NCBI GenBank assembly: GCA_038322815.1
Contig: JBBQGG010000002.1
Location: 41,899-105,898 of the forward strand
Reading direction: 5' to 3'
DNA length: 64,000 nucleotides
From: Candidatus Kapaibacterium sp.
GTDB taxonomy: Bacteria > Bacteroidota > Ignavibacteria > Palsa-1295
Shown here: positions 3,079 to 64,000 of the stretch, in pieces
How the letters are laid out: every line of letters begins with the position of its first letter
How positions within the stretch are numbered: position 1 is the stretch's first letter
Made by a program: the position numbers and the translations under genes
Notes under the pieces: model-generated
Database searches by the model: none
The model's input: the letters and a program-made list of their open reading frames with translations, nothing else
Told to the model about the DNA's origin: nothing

Positions 3079-3630
3079 TCAAAATGCAAAAACATCTTCA
3101 ACCTTCATGGAGAAGCCTGGAAACATGGGAGATTCTAATTTTCCTGTTTTGCGGACCATGGATTCAGTTCGGTAGAATTCGCCGTCTTTGATCATGATCT
3201 CGATTGTTTCCGCTTCGGGATCAACGATCCAGTATTCCGAGACGCCATGCTCGCAATACATTTCTTTCTTGCGAGTAAAATCATAATAGGCATTGGATGG
3301 AGAAAGTATTTCGATTACCAGATCGGGCACGATATTGAATTTCTTTTTTCCGATAAGATGTGCGCGCTCTTTGCACACGAAAAGTATGCCAGGTTGATAG
3401 ACATCGTGATCGGTGAGCTGAATATCAAGCGGCGCAAAGAAAATTCTTCCTGATTTTTTCGATTCTATAAATTCGTCGAGTTCACGAAAAAGATTACGTA
3501 AAATCCCTTGATGAAACGGTGGGGGCTGGGGCTCATAATTAATTCTCCGCCGATAAGCTAATAGGGTGCGCCTTCGGGCAACCGTTCGTAGTCTTCAATC
3601 GTCGCCGGTTTTGGTTCAGTTAATAGCATA
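3079..3630 (-). pseudogene. Uma2-family (DUF820) endonuclease, disrupted by an in-frame TAG and a frameshift
   Basis: Manual translation gives MLLTEPKPATIEDYERLPEGAPY, then TAG at plus 3558-3560, then LIGGELIMSPSPHRF. After a 1-nt frame change it continues HQGILRNLFRELDEFIESKKSGRIFFAPLDIQ..., which joins the listed ORF 3079..3378. Confidence 0.45.
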
Positions 3631-3694
3631 GAGTTTCGATAGAATTTGTAACAGGAGGCATTCTTTTTCGTTCCAAATGATCAGTATACGGTAG

Positions 3695-5050
3695 TTATAT
3701 ATACTTCTCCGGCTCCAATCCCTTCAACCTTTCCCGAATTTCTTTTTCTTTTCCGTATTCTGTCGGATCGTAATAGATTTTATCTTTTAATTCTTCGGGC
3801 AGGCAATTCATTTCGGCATGGGCGTTTTCTTCGGAGTGCGCATATTTGTAGCCTTTGCCGTAGCCAAGTTCTTTCATGAGCTTTGTCGGCGCATTGCGGA
3901 TATGCAGAGGGACGGGAAGATCGGGATGAGCTTTAATATCTTCCATTGCCTTGCCGATGGCAGTTGTTGCCGCATTGGATTTCGGCGCAGCGGCAAGATA
4001 GGCAGCCGTCTGCGAAAAGATGAGTTGCGATTCCGGCCAGCCGACTGAACGGATCGCCGTCCAGCAGCTTGTCGAAAGTACAAGCGCCATCGGATCGGCA
4101 TTGCCGATATCTTCGGAAGCAAGAATCACCATCCGCCGCGCGATAAATTCAGGATCTTCGCCGGCATCTATCATTCGTGCAAGCCAGTAGATCGCAGCAT
4201 TGGGATCGGAGTTGCGCATGGATTTGATAAAGGCGCTGATAATATCGTAATGCATTTCGCCGCCTTTATCATATCGCGATGCTTTACGTCCGAAAGCACT
4301 TTCAACTATTTCCTGCGATAGATGAATTTCTTTTCCGGATGCAGCAGTAAGTGATACTCCAAGTTCAAGTGCCGAAAGCATCTTGCGGACATCTCCGCCG
4401 GATAATGCAAAGAGCGCTGTTTTCGCTTCCGGTTCAAAGGTGATCTGTAAGTTTTTTAATTCTTCATCCTGCTTCAATGTCCGTTGCAAAACTTCTTCAA
4501 GATCGCTTTCGCCAAGTGATTCAAGAACATAAACCCGTGTTCGTGATAGAAGCGGAGAAATAACTTCGAATGAAGGATTTTCGGTCGTTGCTCCGATCAG
4601 TGTGATAGTGCCGTCTTCCACTGCACCAAGAAGTGCGTCCTGTTGCGATTTTGAGAAGCGGTGAATTTCGTCTATGAAAAGTATGCTGCGCTTTTTATTG
4701 CGTGCATTCGATCGGCGAGCTTCGTCTATCGTTTCGCGCAATTCTTTTACTCCGCTTGAAACTGCGGATAACGAATAGAACGCTGTGCCTGCATTTTGCG
4801 CTAATGCTCTGGCAATCGTCGTCTTCCCTGTTCCGGGTGGTCCCCAAAGGATCATAGAATAAATATTTCCCGAGCGTGACATCTGCTCAAGGGGCTTGCC
4901 TTCGCCAATGAGATGCTTCTGCCCGACGATATCGTGAAGTGTTTTCGGACGCATCCTCTCAGCAAGCGGTGCGAACCGATCAGCAGGATGAAATCCTTCT
5001 CCGAAGGTTTCCTGCCCAGAGGATGAATGCTGTTCGTTCTGTTTTCGCAT
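3695..5050 (-). CDS. rarA: replication-associated recombination protein A (AAA+ ATPase)
   Basis: It has a Walker A motif (GPPGTGKTT) and RarA/MgsA-specific C-terminal helical domains. Confidence 0.9.
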   Translation of the reverse strand: MRKQNEQHSSSGQETFGEGFHPADRFAPLAERMRPKTLHDIVGQKHLIGEGKPLEQMSRSGNIYSMILWGPPGTGKTTIARALAQNAGTAFYSLSAVSSGVKELRETIDEARRSNARNKKRSILFIDEIHRFSKSQQDALLGAVEDGTITLIGATTENPSFEVISPLLSRTRVYVLESLGESDLEEVLQRTLKQDEELKNLQITFEPEAKTALFALSGGDVRKMLSALELGVSLTAASGKEIHLSQEIVESAFGRKASRYDKGGEMHYDIISAFIKSMRNSDPNAAIYWLARMIDAGEDPEFIARRMVILASEDIGNADPMALVLSTSCWTAIRSVGWPESQLIFSQTAAYLAAAPKSNAATTAIGKAMEDIKAHPDLPVPLHIRNAPTKLMKELGYGKGYKYAHSEENAHAEMNCLPEELKDKIYYDPTEYGKEKEIRERLKGLEPEKYI

Positions 5051-5229
5051 AGTAGTATCATAGATAAACGTTTAAGTTAAAGGTATTGGTTTTGCAAATA
5101 ATTTCACTTCGATTTGGTAAATGTTACTACATGGTAATTTGAACATGGAGTTAAGTGCATAGCTTTTAAAAAGTATCGGAACTTAATAAAAAAATGTTTT
5201 TGTTTTTTGTGTAAATTTAATAAGATTAA

Positions 5230-6438
5230 ATGCATATAATCAGGATGTTTGCGGTATTTTTTCTGCTTTTATTAAGCAGAGGATATGCATTCTCGAATGG
5301 AAAAAATCCTGAGCGGCAATACAAAAAATTTTTACAAAAAATAACAAAAATAAAATCCGGTAAAATTTCGTATGAATTGGATAAAAAACCATTTTACAAA
5401 TCCAATTCCCGCAAAGATTTATACCAACTTGAATACACTCGATCAGAAACCGATTCTAATAAATATGCTCTTTGGATACATATCCCGGAATTGGGTGTTG
5501 ATGAGATATATTCAAATGATACCGCTCACACCGTCTGGCACAAGAAGAAGGTCATCACATGGAAGAGAATGACTCCCGGCGAATACAGGGATGAAGTAAG
5601 CAACGATCTCTCAAACTTTACATTTGGTATCCCTGGTTCAATAATCAAGAAAACACTTTCTACGGACACACTTTTTTCCGACACAATTATTAATCGCAAT
5701 GCTTTTGTTAAGATACTGAAAACAAATAAACTGAAGGGTCACAATGCAGACTCCACTGAAACATCTTTTATTTTTTCATTGGAAGATAATAATAAAATGA
5801 CCTTTGAAAATAAAATTTGGCGTGATGGAGAAGTACAGATTTTTCAGGAAAAAAATCGACAGGCTGTGTATTCTGATTTTTTCGATATCTTTCTTGCAAA
5901 GAGAATACATGATTACCTCCATCATCTACTTCGCGACTCTAATTATACACTTGTTGCTGAGGATGATTTCTCTCCTTTTCAAGATTCAGGGAAACAAAAA
6001 TTCATTCAAGTAGGAGATACTTTTCTTTCTGCCGGTTACCAGACAATTGCCGGGGAAGATATAGATATTTCGGAATTTCATTCGAAATTAACACTCTTGG
6101 ATTTTAGTTATATGGCTTGTGAGCCCTGCAGGCAGTCTATTCCTTTTATTGTGAATCTTTTCAAAAAATATCAGGATAGTGGTTTGAGAATATGGGGTAT
6201 TGATCCATTTGATAAAAAGGAAAAAGATATTTTTTTACGATACGCATCAAGATACCATATAGATTTTCCTATGCTCTTTACTGATAAAACTAAAATGAAA
6301 GAAATAGGTATCAATGGTTATCCGACGTATGTGCTTCTTGATAAAAATATGAAAGTTCTCTCTGTATTCAATGGCTTTGGACCATTATCTGTTGATTCAT
6401 TTCTTGAACCTCAGATAAAGGATTTTCTCCGCAGATAG
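5230..6438 (+). CDS. secreted protein with C-terminal TlpA-like thioredoxin-fold domain (CEPC motif)
   Basis: It has a signal peptide. The C-terminal ~130 aa carry a CxxC motif (MACEPCRQ) and redoxin-like secondary-structure motifs. Confidence 0.55.
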   Translation: MHIIRMFAVFFLLLLSRGYAFSNGKNPERQYKKFLQKITKIKSGKISYELDKKPFYKSNSRKDLYQLEYTRSETDSNKYALWIHIPELGVDEIYSNDTAHTVWHKKKVITWKRMTPGEYRDEVSNDLSNFTFGIPGSIIKKTLSTDTLFSDTIINRNAFVKILKTNKLKGHNADSTETSFIFSLEDNNKMTFENKIWRDGEVQIFQEKNRQAVYSDFFDIFLAKRIHDYLHHLLRDSNYTLVAEDDFSPFQDSGKQKFIQVGDTFLSAGYQTIAGEDIDISEFHSKLTLLDFSYMACEPCRQSIPFIVNLFKKYQDSGLRIWGIDPFDKKEKDIFLRYASRYHIDFPMLFTDKTKMKEIGINGYPTYVLLDKNMKVLSVFNGFGPLSVDSFLEPQIKDFLRR

Positions 6439-6539
6439 CGCAGCAAAATTTCCTGCCCAGATGATGAATGGTCTTTACGTGTTGCCGGCATAATGGTGCT
6501 TATATTTTGTAAGACTAAGTTATGAAAAAATCAAATGCA

Positions 6540-6715
6540 GTCATTTCGAACGGAGTCTGCCGCGACGAAGGAGCGGGAGACGTAGAGAGAAATCTATATA
6601 ATAAGAATAAGTCATTATTTCTTCTCCCTATTGGGAATTTAAAGGATCTATTCTTATTAATAGATTTCTCTCTCCTTTTCGCTCTTGGGGAGCGAAACTC
6701 CGTTCGGAATGACAA
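6540..6715. repeat. ~175-bp imperfect palindromic (MITE-like / cruciform) element
   Basis: A left arm gtcatttcgaacggagt...agagagaaatctatataataagaataag pairs with a right arm cttattcttattaatagatttctctct...actccgttcggaatgac. Each arm has an internal hairpin. A half copy lies at 16355-16412. Confidence 0.5.
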
Positions 6716-6823
6716 AGCAGGCCGTACTCCTCACTTTCCTGAAACTTAAATAGTCTATAATTGAATTTACTATTAGCTTGCCCACATCGGATTTAGTACA
6801 TTATAACAGAACATAGTAATATT

Positions 6824-9793
6824 ATGTCACGTTTTTACATCTTCGCTGCGCTTTCATGCATTGGACTTTCTTTTCTTTATGCGCCATCCGTTTTTGCGCA
6901 GCAAACCGAGTCTTCGGAAAATGAGCTTTTGAAATCAGCCGTTACCGTGCCAAATGAAATTGGTGTATATAAAGGGATCAATTCCATTCCCGAAGCTATC
7001 CGCAAGACAAAGCCTTTTGCCAGACTGCTTTCGGATATGCAGCACACTTCCGGACTTAATGGTATCTATGAGCGGCAAACACGTATCGAAGCTTTCGGGC
7101 AGTCGCAATCCGATCTGTTCCGCGATGCGATGATCGCGGATAAAGTATCAGGCAGCAAGCTTCCCGTTTTTTCGGCAGCATGGGTAAATGTCGGACCGGT
7201 AAATACGGGAGGATGCACGAAGGCATTAGCCTTTCATCCAACAGATGGAAATACGATCTATGCCGGAGCTGCTGCAGGTGGTGTATGGAAAACAACGAAT
7301 GCCGGATCGTCATGGACTCCGCTGACCGATCTTGTTATACCCGATCTTGCCGTAGCTTCTATAGCTGTCGATCCATCTTCTCCAAATACGATCTATGTCG
7401 GCTCGGGTGATCCCTCCGTTGCCTCTGACGGATTGCCGGGTACAGGGCTGTATAAATCTACTGATGCAGGATCGACATGGAACCGCATGGCTTCAGCAAC
7501 ATTGACCGGAGGCGTAAATAAAGTTCTTGTTCATCCGACCAATTCTAATATCGTTTTTGCATGCAGCTACGATAATGGTCGAGGTGTGTACCGCTCAACA
7601 AATGGCGGAGTAACATTCACAAAAGTATTTACTGCTGCGGCAGTTATCTGGGATATTATCTCCGCGCAAAAGATCGGCAATCAGTTGCTGATGTATTTTG
7701 TCGAAGGAAATCAGCCTGGCGGTACTTCAACAGAATGCGGAGTATATAAATCACTTGATGACGGAGCAACATGGATAAAGATATCTGTAGGCGGTTTACC
7801 GGCAGGGAATACTATTGGTAAATCTGCTCTTGCAATTCCTTCCGGTGATAAAACAAAGGTCTATTGTCTGATGGCAAAACCCGATGGAAATTTACAGGGA
7901 TTATATCTATCCACAAACTCCGGAGTACTATTCAATCAGGTTGCAACAGTTCCTTCGTCGATCTTTAATCCCAACGGCAACGGTCCGCAGGGTTGGTACG
8001 ATCTTTATCTTGCCATCGCGCCTACGACAACACCAAACGATACGCTTTATATCGGAGGGGTCGAAGCGTATTATTCTTTCAATAGCGGCAACTCATGGAC
8101 TGCCTACAGTGATTATAGCGGCACCCATAACGTCCATGTTGATAATCAATCAATTGCTATCGACCCTACCAATTCGCGCAGAGTCTATACTGGAACAGAT
8201 GGCGGAGTCTATCGCTCTATTGATGCGGGGCAAACATGGACATACCGTTCTGCCGGAATGGAAACCATGCGCTTTTACCATATAGGTCTTGATAAGAATG
8301 ATTTCTTAAAAACCTATGCCGGAGCTCAGGATCAAGGAACCTGGAAAGTGACTTCAGGTCAATCACCGTCGCAGATCTTTGGTGGCGATGGGTTCCAGCC
8401 TATTGTCGATCCGAGTAATTCAAATACGATCTATGCTGAGGGTCCGGTCGGCGATCTATTTAAATCAACAAACGGAGGCGGAAATTTTACTTCGATCGAC
8501 GATCCTGCTTTTGTACAGGGAAATGCGAATTTCGAGCCTTCGGATTGGGAAACGCCATTTGCTATGGCACCGAAAAACAGTTCGACACTCTTTACCGGAA
8601 GGCAGCGTCTTTGGCAAAGTGTCAATGGCGGTAGTTCATGGAATGCGATCTCTCCAACACTGGTGCTCAATAATTATACCTATTTAATCGAATCCATCGG
8701 TTTATCGCCTGCCAATAACCAACACTTTTGGACGGGATATCAAGGCGGAAAGATCAGACTTACTACCGATGGCGGTTCGAATTGGGCTGATAAATCTACA
8801 GGATTACCGGGAAGTACTGTCCGTTCGATCGTCTGCCATCCAACCGATGCAGCGTGGGCACTTGCAGCATTTGAATCGTATGGAAATGCAGTGCGTGTTA
8901 TGCGCACCACAAATTCCGGAACTTCGTGGACAAATGTTTCGGGGACTACAGCAAAACTTCCGGGTGTGCCGGTGAATTGTGTGGCGCTTGACTCTACCAG
9001 TCCTTCAACGGTATGGTATGCGGCAACTGATAACGGAATTTATTATACGCGCGATGCAGGAGTTACCTGGTCAATAGCGGGTTCAGGTTTAGGACTTGCT
9101 CCGTGCTGGGATGTCCAGGTACATGCGAATAAGACAACGATCCGAGTCGGAACGCATGGCAGAAGCATTTGGGAAGGCAACGTCAATATTCTTCCCGTCG
9201 AACTTACGGGACTAAGCGCTACGAAAACAATTACCGGCACAAAGCTCGATTGGAAAACAGATAGCGAGCGAAGTAACTCGGGCTTCAAAGTAGAACGCAG
9301 TTATAATTATGCGACATTCGAAGAGCTAAGTTTTATTCCGGGAGCAGGAAATTCAAATACGGAAATTTCGTACAACTATTTCGATCCGAAACATGATGAC
9401 GGATATTATATCTATCGCCTTGAACAAGTTGATCTTGATGGCTCAACCCATTTATCGAATATCGTGGAAGTCCGCTATGGTGCAGCATCTGCACTGCGCT
9501 TAGACCAGAGCTTTCCGAACCCTTTCTTTGCCGGCAGTGCAGCAACAGGAAGTGCCCGAATCCGATACGAACTACCGAATCCCGATGAAGTAACACTGAA
9601 ATTTGTTTCGGTATCCGGCGCCGTCGTTCGTACGCTCATTGACCACCAAACTCAGCAAGCAGGTGAACAAAATATCTTCTGGGATGGTACCGATGATAAG
9701 GGACTTCCTGTGGCAAGCGGAGTATACTATTACAGACTCGATACGAAATCAGGAAGCAGCCTCTGGAATAAAATGATTTTGGTTACGAAGTAA
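6824..9793 (+). CDS. BNR/Asp-box repeat protein (sialidase/GH74-like beta-propellers) with T9SS C-terminal sorting domain
   Basis: It has a signal peptide and many SxDxGxTW Asp-box repeats. The C-terminal ~80 aa match the Por/T9SS sorting-domain pattern. Confidence 0.75.
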   Translation: MSRFYIFAALSCIGLSFLYAPSVFAQQTESSENELLKSAVTVPNEIGVYKGINSIPEAIRKTKPFARLLSDMQHTSGLNGIYERQTRIEAFGQSQSDLFRDAMIADKVSGSKLPVFSAAWVNVGPVNTGGCTKALAFHPTDGNTIYAGAAAGGVWKTTNAGSSWTPLTDLVIPDLAVASIAVDPSSPNTIYVGSGDPSVASDGLPGTGLYKSTDAGSTWNRMASATLTGGVNKVLVHPTNSNIVFACSYDNGRGVYRSTNGGVTFTKVFTAAAVIWDIISAQKIGNQLLMYFVEGNQPGGTSTECGVYKSLDDGATWIKISVGGLPAGNTIGKSALAIPSGDKTKVYCLMAKPDGNLQGLYLSTNSGVLFNQVATVPSSIFNPNGNGPQGWYDLYLAIAPTTTPNDTLYIGGVEAYYSFNSGNSWTAYSDYSGTHNVHVDNQSIAIDPTNSRRVYTGTDGGVYRSIDAGQTWTYRSAGMETMRFYHIGLDKNDFLKTYAGAQDQGTWKVTSGQSPSQIFGGDGFQPIVDPSNSNTIYAEGPVGDLFKSTNGGGNFTSIDDPAFVQGNANFEPSDWETPFAMAPKNSSTLFTGRQRLWQSVNGGSSWNAISPTLVLNNYTYLIESIGLSPANNQHFWTGYQGGKIRLTTDGGSNWADKSTGLPGSTVRSIVCHPTDAAWALAAFESYGNAVRVMRTTNSGTSWTNVSGTTAKLPGVPVNCVALDSTSPSTVWYAATDNGIYYTRDAGVTWSIAGSGLGLAPCWDVQVHANKTTIRVGTHGRSIWEGNVNILPVELTGLSATKTITGTKLDWKTDSERSNSGFKVERSYNYATFEELSFIPGAGNSNTEISYNYFDPKHDDGYYIYRLEQVDLDGSTHLSNIVEVRYGAASALRLDQSFPNPFFAGSAATGSARIRYELPNPDEVTLKFVSVSGAVVRTLIDHQTQQAGEQNIFWDGTDDKGLPVASGVYYYRLDTKSGSSLWNKMILVTK

Positions 9794-59659: not shown

Positions 59660-59732
59660 GCTTCCTTAGCTCAGTTGGTAGAGCAAATGACTCTTAATCA
59701 TTGGGTCGCGGGTTCGAGTCCCGCAGGGAGCA
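59660..59732 (+). tRNA. tRNA-Lys (anticodon CTT)
   Basis: It folds into a cloverleaf. The acceptor stem is gcttcct/agggagc, the anticodon stem is aatga/tcatt, the loop ctCTTaa gives the anticodon, and the T-arm is gcggg-ttcgagt-cccgc. No CCA is encoded. Confidence 0.85.
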
Positions 59733-60266
59733 CGACTGTCAAAGAACGAACGGGCTGTAATAAAGTCTCGAAAAGAGTGAACTCATTTGCGAAAAAGTCC
59801 TCAAAACAGCCCAAATTCTATGATTTTTACTTGTAGAGTTCATTCCTAGTTTCGTTAATCCGCATAACAAAAATACAAAAATTTTTCTATCAAGGGATAA
59901 TTTCCGGCTATTCCTACCCGTAAAATCTTCGTCAGTTCTTCGTCACCTAAAGTAAGCATCCCTCTACTTTTTAAGAGTTCGTATATTATTACCCGGAATT
60001 GAACTGGAAAGAGACTCAAGGATTTCTATTGTTGATTACAAAGGTAAGGCACCACACAATACCATAGGTGGGAAGGTGTAGAATAGAAAAATAGATCATT
60101 CATAAATCTTAACCCGGACCAAGTCAGAATTCGCATTTCCAATAGGTGCTCATAGCAGAAAGTCTTTTATTGTACTCCAGATTTTCTTATCGTATATTGT
60201 TCAAAAAGTGATAGGCACCAATTTGGCTGCAAATAACCTCTTTTGATAGTATCAACTTTGTAAAGT

Positions 60267-60301
60267 TAACAAGAAATTTTCCGCCAGAAAATTTCTTGTT
60301 A
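60267..60301. promoter_or_regulatory. perfect 15-bp inverted repeat (taacaagaaattttc-cgcca-gaaaatttcttgtta) ~120 bp upstream of the island operon
   Basis: The repeat is read directly from the sequence. No T-run follows, so it looks like an operator rather than a terminator. Confidence 0.4.
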
Positions 60302-60418
60302 CAGGAAAAACTTAAAAAAGTATATAGAAAAAGACAAAATCGACAGGCATAGGTGAAAGCCAGCAGAGCCGAAAAGTACAAAAGATGCAAAAAGAATCAA
60401 AACTAACTCTTAACAAAA

Positions 60419-61429
60419 ATGGACGACATCAAACTTGATTCCGATATAGAAACACAGTGGAAAGAACTTTCTAAATGTCTTCATGAAATCAAAGATACCG
60501 AGGAACGTATCGCTATTCTCATCAAAAGAATCGAGGTTGTCAATTTACAACGAAGTGATTGGATGGCCCAGAATCCCCGTAAGGCAGGTTCGTATGTTCT
60601 CTTTGGGAGCAAATTACTCCATGAAATATCTAACCAAATTGAAATACTAAAAAAGCAAGGAGACATTAAGAAGGCTGAGGAAGCCAAACAGCGATTACAC
60701 GACATTTTGACCCCACAAGAACCTGACATCATTTTTCTAAACGAAAAAGATAGGGTTTTCTTAAAGGAAAGGGGTGGGATAGAAAAGTTGGATGCAATAT
60801 GGAAAAATGTTTCGCAAGGAACAATAACTATTTCAGATACAGCAATAAAAGTGAGTTTACTTCGACAGTTAAATGAACTTTGGTATTATCCGAACATACA
60901 ACTACAAGAAGCAAAAAATACAGCGAAACGAATAGATCTATTAAGGAATCTCATTTCTGAGTCACAAAAGGTTATAGAATGTGAACCTGAGAACCACTTA
61001 CAAAAACTATTTATATTAGGAGCGAAATCAGGGGTAAAATATTATGAAGGCGTTTTAAATTCAGAAAGAAAAAAGATTATTTCTTCTTCACTCACATGCC
61101 CATATCCTCACGACTCAGAACAAATGGCTTCATACAAACGTGTAGCAAAGGTGTTCGAAAAACAATCATTTTGGTCCGGTTCTCTAACGGATTTCGTTTT
61201 TGCAATGAATGAACTTGCGGTGAAAGGTTTCTTAAAAGCAAACGATCTTGATGAAGCATTATCGGAAACATTTGCTCATAAACCAAAAGGAAAAAAAGAA
61301 GTCCAAAAACTTACTGCGAAGATCATCAACAACCGCCGTCGTAATATGAAGGGAGGTCGTTACACTGAATCAGAAGAAATTCATACTACTGTCGTTACAA
61401 TGTTAAAACAGATAAAACCGAAGGAATAA
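60419..61429 (+). CDS. hypothetical protein (helical; C-terminal ~110 aa paralogous to next gene; CPYPHDSEQ motif)
   Basis: ORF-track support, plus an internal paralogy alignment with the 61434 ORF. Confidence 0.5.
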   Translation: MDDIKLDSDIETQWKELSKCLHEIKDTEERIAILIKRIEVVNLQRSDWMAQNPRKAGSYVLFGSKLLHEISNQIEILKKQGDIKKAEEAKQRLHDILTPQEPDIIFLNEKDRVFLKERGGIEKLDAIWKNVSQGTITISDTAIKVSLLRQLNELWYYPNIQLQEAKNTAKRIDLLRNLISESQKVIECEPENHLQKLFILGAKSGVKYYEGVLNSERKKIISSSLTCPYPHDSEQMASYKRVAKVFEKQSFWSGSLTDFVFAMNELAVKGFLKANDLDEALSETFAHKPKGKKEVQKLTAKIINNRRRNMKGGRYTESEEIHTTVVTMLKQIKPKE

Positions 61430-61433
61430 CTTT

Positions 61434-62063
61434 ATGAATCAAACTGACGAACAAAAATATTATGAGGAAGAAATTGAGAAGCATTGTGATTTTCTTGCCG
61501 AACTACACTTTGGGAAGTGGATGGAACGAGACATTCAAGCAGCAAGGAACACCGCTGAGATTATCGCATTACTTGAGAGGGAGTTGAAAAAAGCTGAAGT
61601 AATCTTCTCGGACACGAAAGGCAAAGATAGCTATTACACTGAAAACTATTTACAGTTACTTCAGCAGAAGATTGGAATCTACCAACGAACGTTAGAAATG
61701 GAACGGCCAGGATTACAATCTTCTGCAGACTGCCAATATCCTCATAATTCTGAGCAGGAAAAAGCATACCACCGTGTAACTGAATTATTAAAGAGTCATC
61801 ACTACTGGGCTGGGTCTCTTTCAGACTTTGTTTATATGATTGATACCCTGGCTTTACACGGCTACTTAAGAGCTAATGAACTTGAGGAAGCGCTTGCCGA
61901 ATCCTTTTCACATAAACCACAAGGTAAAAAAAAAATTCAGAGGTTGACGGCTGATAAAATCAAAGATCGTCGTCGAAATATGAAAATTGGTCATAATACA
62001 GTATCCCCTGAAATAGTAAGAACAGTCGATAGAATCGTAAAAAAAATGAAATCAGAAAGGTAA
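61434..62063 (+). CDS. hypothetical protein, paralog of the preceding gene's C-terminal domain (CQYPHNSEQ motif)
   Basis: The C-terminal ~110 aa of the 60419 ORF align to the corresponding stretch of this ORF, roughly SSSLTCPYPHDSEQ...HKPKGKKEVQKLTAKIINNRRRNMK against SSADCQYPHNSEQ...HKPQGKKKIQRLTADKIKDRRRNMK. Confidence 0.5.
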   Translation: MNQTDEQKYYEEEIEKHCDFLAELHFGKWMERDIQAARNTAEIIALLERELKKAEVIFSDTKGKDSYYTENYLQLLQQKIGIYQRTLEMERPGLQSSADCQYPHNSEQEKAYHRVTELLKSHHYWAGSLSDFVYMIDTLALHGYLRANELEEALAESFSHKPQGKKKIQRLTADKIKDRRRNMKIGHNTVSPEIVRTVDRIVKKMKSER

Positions 62064-62159
62064 ATTGAATCTTCTACATTCTTAAAAAAATCGTTAAATT
62101 AATGCAATTTTTCCATAGAAAACTTTGCTTTATATAGGGTGCGATTTTAGGCACCTGTA

Positions 62160-62840
62160 ATGAAGAAAACAATAATACCCACACAGCTTTCGCAGTTACG
62201 AACTGCACCTTACAATCCTCGAGCGATTGAAGATACTGCCTTCGAAGGATTAAAGTATTCTATCGAAGAATACGGCGATCTTAGCGGCATCGTGTTCAAT
62301 GTCCGGACCAAACACTTAGTAGCCGGTCATCAGCGCGTGAAAGCGCTCCGTGAACAATATGGCAACATCTCTATTGCTGCCGGAAAAATGAAAGCCAAGA
62401 CCGGAGAGATATTTCCGGTCCGGTTTGTGGATTGGGATTTACCAAAAGAGAAACTTGCCAACCTTGCTGCCAATAGCCCAACGATTCAGGGAGTCTTCAC
62501 TTCTGATGTTCGTTCACTTCTTGACGAACTGAAACTTGAGCAAACAGAAGAGTTTGAAGCATTACAGTTAGAAGGTATTTATGCTCTCCCCCTTGACCTT
62601 ACAGAAGAATTTGAATACATTGGAGAAGCTGAGGACATTTCTTCAAATAACCGTGCAATGATACCCGACGGAGATCGTAGTGAAGGCTATTTGGCAGGTG
62701 AAACAAAGAAGTTTGAGTTCTACATTGAGAAAGCAGACTATGAAAGATTCATTGGGAAATTGAAGCAACTCAAGAACGACTTACAGGTTGAAACCAACTC
62801 CGATGTTTTTCTGAGACTTGTAATGAACTATGGAAACTAA
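62160..62840 (+). CDS. ParB-like nuclease (ParB/Srx fold) domain protein
   Basis: The segment LRTAPYNPR ... LVAGHQRVKAL parallels the ParB N-terminal motifs (GERRxRA box). Confidence 0.6.
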   Translation: MKKTIIPTQLSQLRTAPYNPRAIEDTAFEGLKYSIEEYGDLSGIVFNVRTKHLVAGHQRVKALREQYGNISIAAGKMKAKTGEIFPVRFVDWDLPKEKLANLAANSPTIQGVFTSDVRSLLDELKLEQTEEFEALQLEGIYALPLDLTEEFEYIGEAEDISSNNRAMIPDGDRSEGYLAGETKKFEFYIEKADYERFIGKLKQLKNDLQVETNSDVFLRLVMNYGN

Positions 62841-63655
62841 TGCAAGAACGGGAAATCATACGAGCAACTGTTAATGATAAGCTCTTCTTAAAGCGAACTC
62901 CTGACCGTTCAGATTATAAAGAGCTGATAACGAAGGATACCATTTTCTTTGAGAATGGAAAACCTGTTATCCTCTACAAGATTATCCCAAAAGCTCAACT
63001 CTCGAAAATCCGGCATTTAGTCTTTGACTCTAAATTCATTAAGGCTCACCGGACAAACGGAACACCAACTCAATCTGCTGTATTCGGTGCTCTCCCCCGA
63101 GTTACTCACCGACATAACTATTGCCGGTATACAGCAAACACAAAGAATCAAAAAGAATTGAATAATGATATTTTCTATTTTGCAAAGCTCATTGATGGCA
63201 TTTACAAAGACCTGCTACCAGAACAGCATGACCTGAATCTTCAAATTGTAGAGGAAAGCGTTGAAGCTGAATACATCATTAAGGATACTCCTTTTACTAC
63301 CGTTAATCTGAATATAAATCATGCAATCAAGTACCATCGTGATACAGGGAATTTCAAGAACGTATTCTCGAATGTACTGATACTGAAGGATGCCGTTGCG
63401 GGTGGCTTCCTTGTCTGCCCTGAATTTAATATAGCTTTTGGTCAGCAAGATGGAGCCTTAATCCTCTTCGATGGTCAGAACATCATTCATGGCGTTACAC
63501 CGATCAAAATGAAGCATGAAAATGCTTATCGGTGCTCTTGCGTCTTTTACTCACTTGCCGATATGAAGAATTGCTATCCTTACAAGATGGAGTTAGAACG
63601 AGTAAAGAAGTGGAGAGACGAAGTTGAAAGCAGATTCAGACCTGAAACACTATAA
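62840..63655 (+). CDS. 2OG-Fe(II) dioxygenase, TET/JBP-family-like (candidate nucleic-acid base hydroxylase)
   Basis: It has H166-R-D168, H217 and R231. The segment AVAGGFLVCPEF...GALILFDGQNIIHGVTPIKMKHENAYRCSCVFY parallels the TET2 stretch GGVAVAPTHGSILIE...ELHATTPLK...TRISLVFY. The HRD matches the TET-type AHAHRD. Confidence 0.55.
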   Translation: MQEREIIRATVNDKLFLKRTPDRSDYKELITKDTIFFENGKPVILYKIIPKAQLSKIRHLVFDSKFIKAHRTNGTPTQSAVFGALPRVTHRHNYCRYTANTKNQKELNNDIFYFAKLIDGIYKDLLPEQHDLNLQIVEESVEAEYIIKDTPFTTVNLNINHAIKYHRDTGNFKNVFSNVLILKDAVAGGFLVCPEFNIAFGQQDGALILFDGQNIIHGVTPIKMKHENAYRCSCVFYSLADMKNCYPYKMELERVKKWRDEVESRFRPETL

Positions 63656-64000
63656 TGGAAAAAAAATACTACATACCGAAGAGTAAGAATTTCAGTCCTA
63701 AGTTTCTGACACGTGTCGGTTCATCCGATATCAAGAGCGTCGATGAAACATGGATAAAGAAAAGCTACAACCGACCCAGTGCCGGTTTCATTGTAAAGCC
63801 AGGTGAGAAGTGGTTAGACCTTGGTGCCAATATCGGAGCCTTCACAATCTATGCTGCACTTCATGGAGCACAGGTCCGGGCTTATGAAGCTCAGGCGGAT
63901 AATATACAAATGATAAACGCGAACATCAAAGCGAATAAACTTGAGGATCAAATCGAAGTCTTAAAGTATGCGATTGTCCCCGATAGTTCACATGGCAAGA
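63655..64000 (+). CDS. FkbM-family SAM-dependent methyltransferase (3' end beyond window)
   Basis: Its ATG overlaps the previous stop (TAATG). The segment WLDLGANIGAFTIYAALHGAQVRAYE is typical of the FkbM family. Confidence 0.6.
   Translation, partial: MEKKYYIPKSKNFSPKFLTRVGSSDIKSVDETWIKKSYNRPSAGFIVKPGEKWLDLGANIGAFTIYAALHGAQVRAYEAQADNIQMINANIKANKLEDQIEVLKYAIVPDSSHGK

Follow-up and report, generated by a model that had tools for sequence, protein, structure and literature searches.

ParB-dependent T-dioxygenases are a subclass of phage 5mYOX enzymes that convert thymine to 5-hydroxymethyluracil (5hmU) in double-stranded DNA (O'Toole et al., PNAS 2026, PMC13229309; bioRxiv 10.1101/2025.08.14.668559). 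Many of the ParB/5mYOX pairs tested in E. coli yield little or no 5hmU. Characterised 5mYOX reside in phage genomes and are linked to kinases, amino-acid:DNA transferases, GATases or glycosyltransferases. In clade C1, represented by 5mYOX176/ParB176, a ParB-like gene lies immediately upstream of a PF12851 dioxygenase (PMC13229309). This ParB has a nucleotide-binding domain at its N-terminus followed by a C-terminal domain, and lacks a helix-turn-helix (HTH). The dioxygenase extends C-terminally past its last conserved Cys. Terminase genes often co-occur and a C5-methyltransferase (C5-MT) is not in the neighbourhood. Phage C5-MT/TET/glycosyltransferase clusters make 5hmC and glycosylated 5hmC, act at GpC sites and depend on a C5 cytosine methyltransferase encoded next to them (Burke et al., PNAS 2021, PMC8256090). 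In phages M6, ViI and PhiW-14 (5-HMUDK kinase plus aGPT-Pplase/AADT), 5hmU enters during replication from 5hmdUTP, and is phosphorylated before substitution (PMC8989533). The kinetoplastid base J pathway (JBP1/JBP2 plus a glucosyltransferase) forms 5hmU in DNA after replication and then decorates the hydroxyl with glucose.

We analysed a 64-kb stretch of DNA, referred to here as the window. Five co-directional ORFs lie 3' of a tRNA-Lys gene (Table 1). These encode two paralogs (A and B), a ParB-like protein, a TET/JBP dioxygenase and a methyltransferase (MT). This layout agrees with the preliminary description, which had five such genes running off the window. The remainder of the window contains ordinary chromosomal genes. 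The cassette shares the features of clade C1 listed above. From these shared features, rather than from direct sequence comparison, its ParB and TET genes are assigned as probable members of the ParB-dependent 5mYOX subclass. The earlier view that the combination was not a described system is outdated; the ParB and TET pair was described in 2025-26 (PMC13229309), and the FkbM methyltransferase step is an uncharacterised addition. In contrast to characterised 5mYOX, the cassette occupies a bacterial chromosome beside a tRNA, and its clade has a single FkbM methyltransferase or no tailoring enzyme.

Table 1. Features at the distal end of the window.
Feature	Coordinates	Strand	Evidence or position
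tRNA-Lys(CTT)	59660-59733	+	ARAGORN; Rfam tRNA 73.4 bits
Conserved non-coding segment	59734-59945	.	Directly 3' of tRNA-Lys
Perfect 15-nt inverted repeat, 5-nt spacer	60267-60301	.	Repeat search
ORF A, 336 aa, first of rare paralogous family	60419-61429	+	
ORF B, 209 aa, paralog of A	61434-62063	+	
ParB-like protein, 226 aa	62160-62840	+	PHROGs, PDB profile match
TET/JBP-family Fe(II)/2OG dioxygenase (5mYOX), 271 aa	62840-63655	+	PF12851
FkbM-family SAM methyltransferase, N-terminal 115 aa	63655-64000	+	TIGR01444, PF05050

The other systems compare as follows. Like the clusters of Burke et al. (PMC8256090), the cassette would use a phage TET to open post-replicative hypermodification, and ParB and terminase genes are found nearby. 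Unlike them, it has no C5-MT and its likely substrate is thymine. As in M6, ViI and PhiW-14, 5hmU in DNA would be elaborated after replication. However, it would form on the polymer by dioxygenase action and then undergo plain O-methylation. The cassette would share both steps of the base J pathway but transfer a methyl group from SAM. It also differs in having no J-binding or SWI2/SNF2 domain, in its ParB-like helper and in being a prokaryotic or viral system. Phage ParB-domain DNA methyltransferase fusions (phrog_498) likewise tie a ParB/Srx domain to DNA modification near packaging genes, and their ParB domain matches the N-terminus of the window ParB-like protein (E=1.3e-16). In the cassette, the ParB-like protein is instead a separate polypeptide with a dioxygenase partner, and the MT is FkbM-type rather than an N6/N4 amino-methyltransferase.

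The dioxygenase ORF matched Pfam Tet_JBP with E=2.1e-21 and 76.3 bits, above the gathering cut-off of 34.9 bits. The AF2 model of the protein has a pLDDT of 90.8. Using Foldseek, the best PDB folds for this model were CcTet, TET2, CMD1 and NgTET1 (E 1e-12 to 1e-9). Residues H166, D168, H217 and R231 are invariant across 30 homologs and align with the HRD...H...R motif of TET2. The TET/JBP identity and the H166/D168/H217 triad, both predicted from the letters of the sequence, are borne out by these results. Profile and model confirm a real TET/JBP dioxygenase, for which catalytic activity is predicted. Its C-terminal extension, 26 aa past the last conserved Cys (C245), is modelled as a helix.

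Matches for the ParB-like protein were PHROGs 9353, 620 and 498 (E 1e-16 to 3e-19). Its family profile matched the ParB/Spo0J N-terminal domain in the PDB (E=8e-10), at profile positions 5-107 only. The window protein alone gave E=0.1 against Pfam ParB_N, which is below significance. With the PHROGs and family-profile matches, the initial ParB-like call is correct. We recognised no HTH and nothing matched past the nucleotide-binding domain (NBD); family members share a conserved C-terminal block. The protein is best read as a ParB/Srx-type N-terminal NBD joined to a family-specific C-terminal domain. A ParB-like ORF directly precedes TET in 83 of 84 loci; in the window, the two genes overlap at the ParB-like stop codon and the TET start codon. 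One phage locus, L096, has ParB and TET fused into a single ORF. Hence, the ParB-like protein is predicted to be an activator of the dioxygenase.

The MT gene starts at an ATG that shares one base with the TET stop codon, and its translation is coupled to that of TET. Its first 115 codons fall inside the window. The complete 256-aa MT, plus about 1.6 kb of extra sequence, comes from L001, a metagenome contig nearly identical to the window (2 mismatches in about 2 kb). The in-window fragment scored 38.3 bits against TIGR01444 (cut-off 37.7) and the full-length protein 31.1 bits against PF05050 (cut-off 22.7). The FkbM-type assignment made earlier was therefore right. Mean column identity of the MT across 9 orthologs is 77%, the highest among the three proteins. 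A FkbM (Methyltransf_21) gene, labelled 'O-methyltransferase', is listed on 6-7% of 5mYOX contigs (Table S7 of bioRxiv 10.1101/2025.08.14.668559). Our analysis adds that this FkbM subfamily is almost always TET-linked. In viral loci of the subfamily, TET was within 4 kb in 82 of 87 and within 300 nt in 76. A ParB-like ORF was present in 75 of the 87, and two gene orders occurred. Among distant MT homologs (33-46% identity), 4 of 4 sampled adjoin a Tet_JBP gene. Because the MT-TET linkage is near-exclusive and tolerant of rearrangement, TET probably makes the MT substrate.

Oxidation followed by group transfer, as first suggested, is the best-supported function given the domains and the TET-MT linkage. 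Specifically, the module (62160 to about 64425) probably carries out ParB-activated oxidation of thymine to 5hmU, then FkbM O-methylation to 5-methoxymethyluracil. Briefly, the ParB-like protein (NBD and C-terminal domain, no HTH) would activate the adjacent dioxygenase on double-stranded DNA. With Fe(II) and 2-oxoglutarate, the dioxygenase would hydroxylate the thymine 5-methyl group after replication. 5hmU would form at preferred sequence contexts. The MT would most likely O-methylate the 5hmU hydroxyl, and the O-methyl group would shield the base from glycosylases and further oxidation. The ParB dependence and the conversion of thymine to 5hmU are carried over from literature on relatives, and would apply here by analogy. 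O-methylation, its product and a role in the bacterium are inferred here; in the bacterium, the modified DNA may be chromosomal, that of the island or that of an infecting phage. No 5-methoxymethyluracil in natural DNA is reported in the literature searched, and the MT step may yield a new DNA base.

The MT could have a substrate other than 5hmU, though this is unlikely. Candidates are a 5-carboxyuracil ester, another base position, or a protein or small molecule for the dioxygenase. The MT acceptor is not readable from sequence; similarity to PDB entries is confined to the SAM-binding region, and there is a weak RfbT match. FkbM-family members elsewhere (FkbM, RfbT, NoeI) methylate sugars and polyketides. 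Characterised phage enzymes oxidise iteratively (PMC13229309), and 5fU and 5caU are therefore possible MT substrates. Conversely, the TET linkage favours a TET-made substrate, the cassette has no glycosyltransferase for a sugar acceptor and the O-methyltransferase chemistry of the family suits a hydroxyl. We thus retain 5hmU as the probable acceptor.

It is very unlikely that the dioxygenase acts on 5-methylcytosine, with a distant C5-MT supplying 5mC and the FkbM protein tailoring 5hmC. Clade A and B phage TETs do oxidise 5mC (PMC8256090), as do characterised T-dioxygenases in vitro (PMC13229309). A C5 DNA methylase was also found among the neighbouring large ORFs of related phages, in 1 of 53. 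However, C5-MT is absent from the cassette, from three island versions and from nearly all phage relatives. In addition, ParB-associated 5mYOX without a neighbouring C5-MT are shown or predicted to be T-dioxygenases (PMC13229309). Thymine remains the preferred substrate.

The ParB-TET-MT triad also occurs in the cultured Prochlorococcus phage MED4-184 and Pelagibacter phage HTVC112P, which is new here. Equally new is its position in phages, where the genes for the small and large terminase subunits come straight after it. In at least 39 of 53 loci, the next large ORF encodes the terminase large subunit. This gene starts about 300 bp downstream of TET without the MT and about 1100 bp with it; L091 and L012 exemplify the typical arrangement. 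Consequently, we propose that the phage module is expressed with packaging genes and marks phage DNA. Marine phage relatives (42-52% TET identity) have ParB-TET without MT. Hence, the MT would be dispensable for basic function. Judged by its genes and relatives, ParB-TET-MT is a putative three-gene DNA-modification module of phage origin.

In three diverged Kapabacteria genomes, a ParB-TET-MT-TerS-like block is at the same tRNA-Lys, and its neighbouring genes vary. Relatives of the locus were found in only 2 of 185,579 species-representative genomes. An accessory position at the tRNA, as originally described, is supported by these observations. In bacterial copies, dN/dS is ~0.03-0.09 for ParB, TET, MT and the 96-aa protein (p96), indicating strong purifying selection. 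Past the window, L001 contains the 96-aa gene, a zinc-ribbon gene that is split and the beginning of a further gene; the TerS-like assignment of the 96-aa gene is weak (phrog_309 E=8e-5; pairwise E=0.009). Between the tRNA and the block, L003 has additional genes without assigned function. L090, whose TET is 89% identical, carries genes for a PDC-S18/DUF5655 protein and an Mrr-like nuclease downstream of the block. The proposal of a mobile island fared less well. None of the three versions has an integrase gene beside tRNA-Lys or a visible terminase large subunit gene. A search of the sequence covered found no att repeat of the tRNA 3' end.

These data also bear on whether an intact temperate prophage, integrated at tRNA-Lys, has its left end at this locus, with its terminase, capsid, tail and integrase genes beyond the window. 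The order ParB-TET-MT-small HTH matches 30-40 kb phage genomes exactly, the locus adjoins a tRNA and the window ends inside the MT gene. Even so, the 1.6 kb extension has no terminase large subunit at the phage-typical place, and in L090 no structural genes follow the block. Furthermore, the A/B and zinc-ribbon genes that flank the block co-occur in a non-phage context (L092), and the missing integrase counts against it. We consider an intact prophage quite unlikely, and favour an accessory element of phage origin.

A host defence or anti-defence role was the other reading first offered. In this case, the cassette would mark self DNA for an effector, or shield island or host DNA from restriction. 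Defence genes often gather in tRNA-linked accessory regions. The L090 block adjoins defence candidates (PDC-S18 and Mrr_cat), the extra L003 genes lie between the tRNA and the block, and bacterial copies are under strong purifying selection. Yet, no PADLOC family matched ParB, TET, MT, A or B significantly; the weak matches covered only the N-terminal region of ParB and the SAM-binding region. The triad has no conserved nuclease or other effector, no effector nuclease is adjacent to the core genes and the adjacent defence-like genes differ among the three versions. Overwhelmingly, the triad is a phage module beside terminase genes. A defence role is thus highly improbable, and DNA modification remains the preferred function.

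The Kapabacteria block sits between unrelated, rare A/B family genes and the zinc-ribbon gene. A and B had been described as paralogous partners of the modification genes. The paralogy holds (43% identity over 179 aa, C-terminal in A; E=5e-44) but the partnership does not. The A/B paralogs are absent from every phage locus, and occur without ParB, TET or MT in other metagenome contigs. Hence, they are ruled out as partners, and ORF A is outside the conserved modification module. ORF A has no family in Pfam, NCBIfam or PADLOC, and among 1.84 billion proteins its own family is represented only 14 times. In ORF B, the N-terminal region is helical and the C-terminus forms a conserved alpha/beta domain of ~100 aa.

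The tRNA-Lys(CTT) gene is the left border of the accessory region, and tRNA-Lys also precedes related cassettes in L003 and L090. Consistent with the ORF-free leader noted initially, only short, unsupported ORFs (43-70 aa, both strands) occur between the tRNA and 60418. Across three genomes, the segment immediately after the tRNA keeps 78-81% identity, although synonymous sites of neighbouring genes are saturated. It had no match in Rfam and its fold z-score is only -1.6. The segment may have a regulatory function, or may be an att arm or the end of an element. The inverted repeat is ~120 bp upstream of ORF A; Rfam yielded only spurious, sub-threshold hairpin matches, and the repeat may be an operator or a hairpin.

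The tRNA-Lys(CTT) gene, detected by both ARAGORN and Rfam, precedes five co-directional genes that run to the end of the window. These are two paralogous ORFs, A and B, followed by a ParB-like gene (ParB), a TET/JBP dioxygenase gene (TET) and an FkbM methyltransferase gene (MT). Between the tRNA and position 60418 we found nothing but short, unsupported ORFs. A gap of 96 nt separates ORF B from ParB. The next two junctions overlap, and ParB, TET and MT therefore form a tightly coupled unit, referred to here as the triad. GC content is 0.36–0.40 at 60–63 kb, against roughly 0.40–0.45 over most of the window. The remaining window encodes ordinary chromosomal functions, with FtsK, AcrB, ribosomal protein S1, MgsA and T9SS-sorting-tail proteins among the 25 of 67 Pfam families listed. 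At the far end, and unrelated to the cassette, a 148-aa ORF (1708–2154) contains a DUF4236 domain (E = 7e-20).

Features of the tRNA-Lys locus in window coordinates
Feature	Coordinates	Strand	Remarks
tRNA-Lys(CTT)	59660–59733	+	ARAGORN, Rfam
ORF A	60419–61429		co-directional with B, ParB, TET and MT
ORF B	61434–62063		co-directional with A, ParB, TET and MT
ParB-like gene	62160–62840		226 aa; co-directional; stop codon overlaps TET start
TET/JBP gene	62840–63655		271 aa; co-directional
MT gene	from 63655, off window end		ATG overlaps TET stop codon

The preliminary description had proposed that TET is a dioxygenase with a TET-like catalytic triad, and this is borne out. The protein matches Pfam PF12851 (Tet_JBP) over residues 99–238 with E = 2.1e-21 and 76.3 bits, above the curated cut-off of 34.9. 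Residues H166, D168, H217, R231 and C245 are invariant in an alignment of 30 homologs. In the profile alignment, the iron-triad and 2OG-Arg residues match the HRD, H and R(I)S motifs of human TET2. The AlphaFold2 model is a double-stranded beta-helix (pLDDT 90.8, pTM 0.86). When this model was compared with the PDB using Foldseek, the best 26 matches were all TET-family structures, namely CcTet, TET2, CMD1 and NgTET1 (E 1.5e-12 to 1e-9; TM 0.57–0.67). AlkB and FTO rank well behind, appearing first at E about 2e-7. The invariant C245 is followed by 26 residues, and the model places a helix at 248–266. We recovered 127 TET relatives, almost exclusively in virome and metagenome data. By analogy with characterised relatives, the predicted activity is oxidation of 5-methylpyrimidines in DNA.

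The ParB-like protein matches Pfam ParB_N weakly (E = 0.1) and ParB-type PHROGs with E values of 1e-16 to 3e-19. Against the PDB, a profile of the family identifies the ParB/Spo0J NBD (E = 8e-10) at profile positions 5–107 only. A C-terminal block is also conserved in the family (20 homologs). The protein in the window thus comprises an NBD and a CTD without the DNA-binding HTH. We examined 89 loci, of which 84 had room for a gene upstream of TET; a ParB-like ORF was directly upstream in 83.

A subclass of ParB-dependent T-dioxygenases was recently described as clade C1 of the phage TET/JBP enzymes known as 5mYOX (O'Toole et al., bioRxiv 2025 / PNAS 2026, PMC13229309). One 5mYOX enzyme requires a co-encoded ParB homolog, which keeps the NBD and CTD and has no DNA-binding domain. 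A C-terminal extension past the last conserved Cys is found in ParB-dependent enzymes only. These enzymes have no neighbouring C5-methyltransferase and yield 5-hydroxymethyluracil (5hmU) on dsDNA only with ParB. The conversion of T to 5hmU is post-replicative and has a sequence preference (PMC13229309). The pair in the window resembles clade C1 in how its genes are arranged and in the domains of ParB, and it likewise has a C-terminal extension (26 residues, helical) and no C5-methyltransferase nearby. Judged by these shared features, the ParB and TET pair is probably a member of this recently described system, and we liken it to 5mYOX176 on the same grounds. The claim that the gene combination was undescribed thus fails for this pair. 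Still new are the dedicated FkbM step and its probable product, the fixed position next to terminase genes and the chromosomal copy long maintained in Kapabacteria.

The same comparison bears on substrate. A dioxygenase directed at 5mC is unlikely, because the neighbourhood has no C5-methyltransferase. No C5 cytosine methyltransferase is present in the cassette, nor in L001 (a near-identical metagenome contig that reaches 1.6 kb beyond the window), nor in L003 and L090 (diverged Kapabacteria-type relatives). DNA_methylase is also missing from the 25 of 67 Pfam families listed for the rest of the window.

The ParB-like, FkbM and paralog calls of the preliminary description were correct, as judged by PHROG and PDB profile matches, FkbM models and the alignment of A with B, respectively. 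MT scores 31.1 bits against PF05050 (cut-off 22.7) and 38.3 bits against TIGR01444 (cut-off 37.7). The motifs DLGANIG (the DxGxNxG SAM loop) and KMNIEGAE (K-x-D/N-x-E-G-x-E) are invariant. At 77%, mean column identity in MT is the highest of the triad proteins. In the clade nearest the window, where TET identity is 57% or more, MT follows TET. Distant members of the MT subfamily (33–46% identity) adjoin a Tet_JBP gene in all four contigs sampled. We then considered 87 MT-subfamily loci, mostly from an IMG/VR scan using a broader MT alignment. TET lies within 4 kb in 82 of these and within 300 nt in 76, while 75 contain a ParB-like ORF. Distant clades mostly have MT before TET, whereas MT comes second in the clade of the window. 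Gene neighbourhood thus makes these FkbM enzymes near-obligate partners of TET/JBP across distant phages, whichever of the two orders the genes take. Because the linkage has been kept through divergence and rearrangement, we take it as strong evidence that MT, as its neighbourhood predicts, would act on the dioxygenase product.

The published work includes this gene without assigning it a role. Table S7 of the preprint lists Methyltransf_21 'O-methyltransferase (FkbM)' on 6–7% of 5mYOX contigs, ParB on 25–29% and terminases on 18–21% (O'Toole et al., bioRxiv 2025). Neither the preprint nor the PNAS version gives the FkbM methyltransferase a function. For the ParB-dependent T-dioxygenases, the kinase, transferase and glycosyl routes of downstream chemistry have been worked out, while the FkbM branch was only counted (PMC13229309). 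Our literature search found no paper pairing FkbM with JBP, and none joining methoxymethyl, hydroxymethyluracil and phage. One of the four contigs sampled for distant MT members, the 48.8-kb phage contig L096, carries a natural ParB-TET fusion. This 461-aa ORF (3274–4659) matches both profiles; an FkbM methyltransferase gene and a second, stand-alone ParB-like gene lie next to it.

In the mechanism that we propose, TET would oxidise T to 5hmU after replication and in a ParB-dependent manner, as reported for its relatives. The FkbM enzyme would then O-methylate the new hydroxyl, yielding 5-methoxymethyluracil. We propose O-methylation because the family consists of O-methyltransferases, and because the cassette lacks any kinase, glycosyltransferase or amino-acid transferase by which 5hmU might be put to another use. 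In addition, the capped hydroxyl would block iterative oxidation to 5fU and 5caU, which, according to the PNAS authors, are excised by E. coli MUG (PMC13229309). That MT instead methylates an acceptor other than the 5hmU hydroxyl seems to us unlikely. Our full reading is that the triad would make 5-methoxymethyluracil, a DNA base so far undescribed in nature, in widespread marine and freshwater phages, cultured Prochlorococcus and SAR11 phages among them. A Kapabacteria lineage would have captured the module with a TerS-like gene into a chromosomal region beside a tRNA, where selection would keep it to mark cellular or island DNA. Taken jointly, these proposals are tentative, and we regard them as possible rather than probable. 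If true, 5-methoxymethyl-dU would be a new natural DNA base with a minimal two-enzyme route.

In phages, the gene order is ParB-TET-[MT]-TerS-TerL-portal. Single-sequence phmmer was too insensitive for terminases, which it detected in 12 of 61 loci. Hence, we used a Pfam scan of downstream ORFs instead. Of 53 distinct loci, at least 39 have the terminase large subunit as their first large downstream ORF. This gene starts about 300–340 bp past TET where MT is missing and about 1100 bp past TET where MT is present. It lies within about 0.4 kb of MT in the phage relatives. The constant spacing suggests co-expression with packaging genes, or possibly a role in packaging. The fixed site just ahead of the terminase genes is relevant to whether such modification serves packaging or restriction evasion. 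Across 30–40 kb phage genomes (L005–L007, L012, L091 and about 40 further IMG/VR loci), ParB-TET(-MT) is nearly always the last unit before TerS-TerL-portal.

The triad also occurs in two cultured phages. Prochlorococcus phage MED4-184 (NC_020847.1, 15790–17914) has the order ParB-MT-TET-small ORF-TerL-portal. In Pelagibacter phage HTVC112P (gp17–gp19) the order is ParB-TET-MT...TerL. Their hosts are Prochlorococcus MED4 and Pelagibacter HTCC7211, and because the phages are in culture the product is directly accessible to nucleoside mass spectrometry. In public records for these two phages and in PHROG 6059 the triad is mislabelled. The TET/JBP gene appears as 'queuine tRNA-ribosyltransferase' or 'DnaJ/SNF2', and in the two phages the ParB-like gene appears as 'DNA methylase' and the FkbM gene as 'hypothetical'. 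Many mycobacteriophage records also label a TET/JBP homolog 'queuine tRNA-ribosyltransferase'.

The bacterial copies occupy a common site. The tRNA-Lys gene directly precedes the region in the window and in both L003 and L090, and distribution is patchy: only 2 of 185,579 species-representative genomes encode a TET relative. In L003, a Candidatus Kapaibacterium MAG, the order is TamB, tRNA-Lys(CTT), three unrelated genes, an A-like gene, ParB, TET and MT. The three extra genes (5146–7900) lie between the post-tRNA segment and the A-like gene. They encode proteins of 350 aa, 273 aa and, on the opposite strand, 283 aa (weakly trypsin-like). None could be assigned to a family. The post-tRNA site is thus a point of variable insertion. 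Between the window and L003, TamB is 36% identical, compared with 83% for TET, 75% for ParB and about 76–84% for MT. Values of dN/dS for the bacterial copies are about 0.03–0.09, with saturated dS. The low dN/dS and high module identity therefore indicate that the genes are functional and have been long kept. The bacterial copy is a rare chromosomal TET/JBP module, and purifying selection has maintained it in three diverged genomes.

Contig L090 starts within the 3' end of tRNA-Lys, followed by two A/B paralogs, ParB, TET and MT. Beyond MT it continues with genes for a 126-aa protein and a 191-aa zinc-ribbon protein, and then with a PDC-S18/DUF5655 gene and one for an Mrr-like nuclease. In L001, MT is followed by a 96-aa gene, a zinc-ribbon gene in two pieces and the start of a further gene. 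The L090 ortholog of the 96-aa gene has a weak match to a small-terminase PHROG (E = 8e-5).

The preliminary description had also suggested a defence or anti-defence module. The surroundings of the cassette in L090 do look like a defence island, given the genes at 5960–8321: a PDC-S18 (DUF5655) defence candidate (PADLOC E = 2e-108), a 181-aa phrog_9607 gene and a gene with an Mrr_cat/NA-iREase1 nuclease domain. For the cassette itself, a defence system finds no support. No effector is conserved, and the core proteins have no family-level match in PADLOC-DB 2.0. The weak matches are restricted to the ParB N-terminal and SAM-binding regions.

The paralogous proteins A and B share 43% identity (E = 5e-44) and come from a family with only 14 representatives in a full HMMER scan of 1.84 billion proteins. 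No phage locus contains a family member. Conversely, four metagenome loci (L092–L095) encode A/B genes without ParB, TET or MT. We therefore rejected A and B as system components; described initially as novel partners, they sit beside the module without belonging to it. Contig L092 has three A/B genes in tandem, with the zinc-ribbon gene directly after them and the gene for a secreted host protein next. The zinc-ribbon gene thus accompanies the A/B family even without the TET module. An intact prophage at tRNA-Lys would also place phage genes here, and is disfavoured. L001, L090 and L092 speak against it, and no terminase large subunit, portal or capsid gene is present in the 1.6 kb past the window (L001) or the 3.6 kb past MT (L090). 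The L003 sequence likewise shows no terminase large subunit or structural genes. Neither an integrase nor a second copy of the tRNA 3' end turned up in the window or any locus examined; the far border of the region lies beyond the sequence covered. On the simplest reading, the A/B and zinc-ribbon genes belong to a pre-existing accessory locus and flank a phage block (ParB-TET-MT-TerS-like).

The zinc-ribbon protein (191 aa) has an N-terminal MGGWGSGR and a Cys-rich C-terminal CRKCYDLSY (L001 3314–3913; L090 5235–5810; L092 2215–2754). It belongs to no Pfam or PHROG family. L090 and L092 carry the gene intact, whereas L001, a strain variant of the window, has it as two ORFs of 84 and 107 aa.

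Directly 3' of tRNA-Lys, a non-coding segment (59734–59945; L003 4770–4981; L090 31–175) is 78–81% identical in the three genomes, even though synonymous sites of the neighbouring genes are saturated. Conserved blocks in the segment are AACTCATTTGCGAAAAAG, AACAAAAATACAAA and CTTCGTCAGTTCTTCG. The segment may mark the end of an element, form an att arm or have a regulatory role. An RNA element in the leader found no support: there was no Rfam match, the fold was not significant (z-score -1.6) and we saw no compensatory changes in the three-way alignment. A minus-strand ORF over the conserved block at 59928–59946 was discarded, since on our reading the aligned L090 sequence has a stop codon within it there. 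Counts from a sigma-70 promoter scan were at or below shuffle expectation, and the consensus is probably inapplicable to this phylum. About 120 bp upstream of ORF A is a perfect 15-nt inverted repeat (60267–60301; TAACAAGAAATTTTC, 5-nt spacer, GAAAATTTCTTGTTA), which could be an operator or hairpin. Close by, a short stretch (60182–60223) shares 86% identity with the sequence that precedes the first A/B gene of L090.
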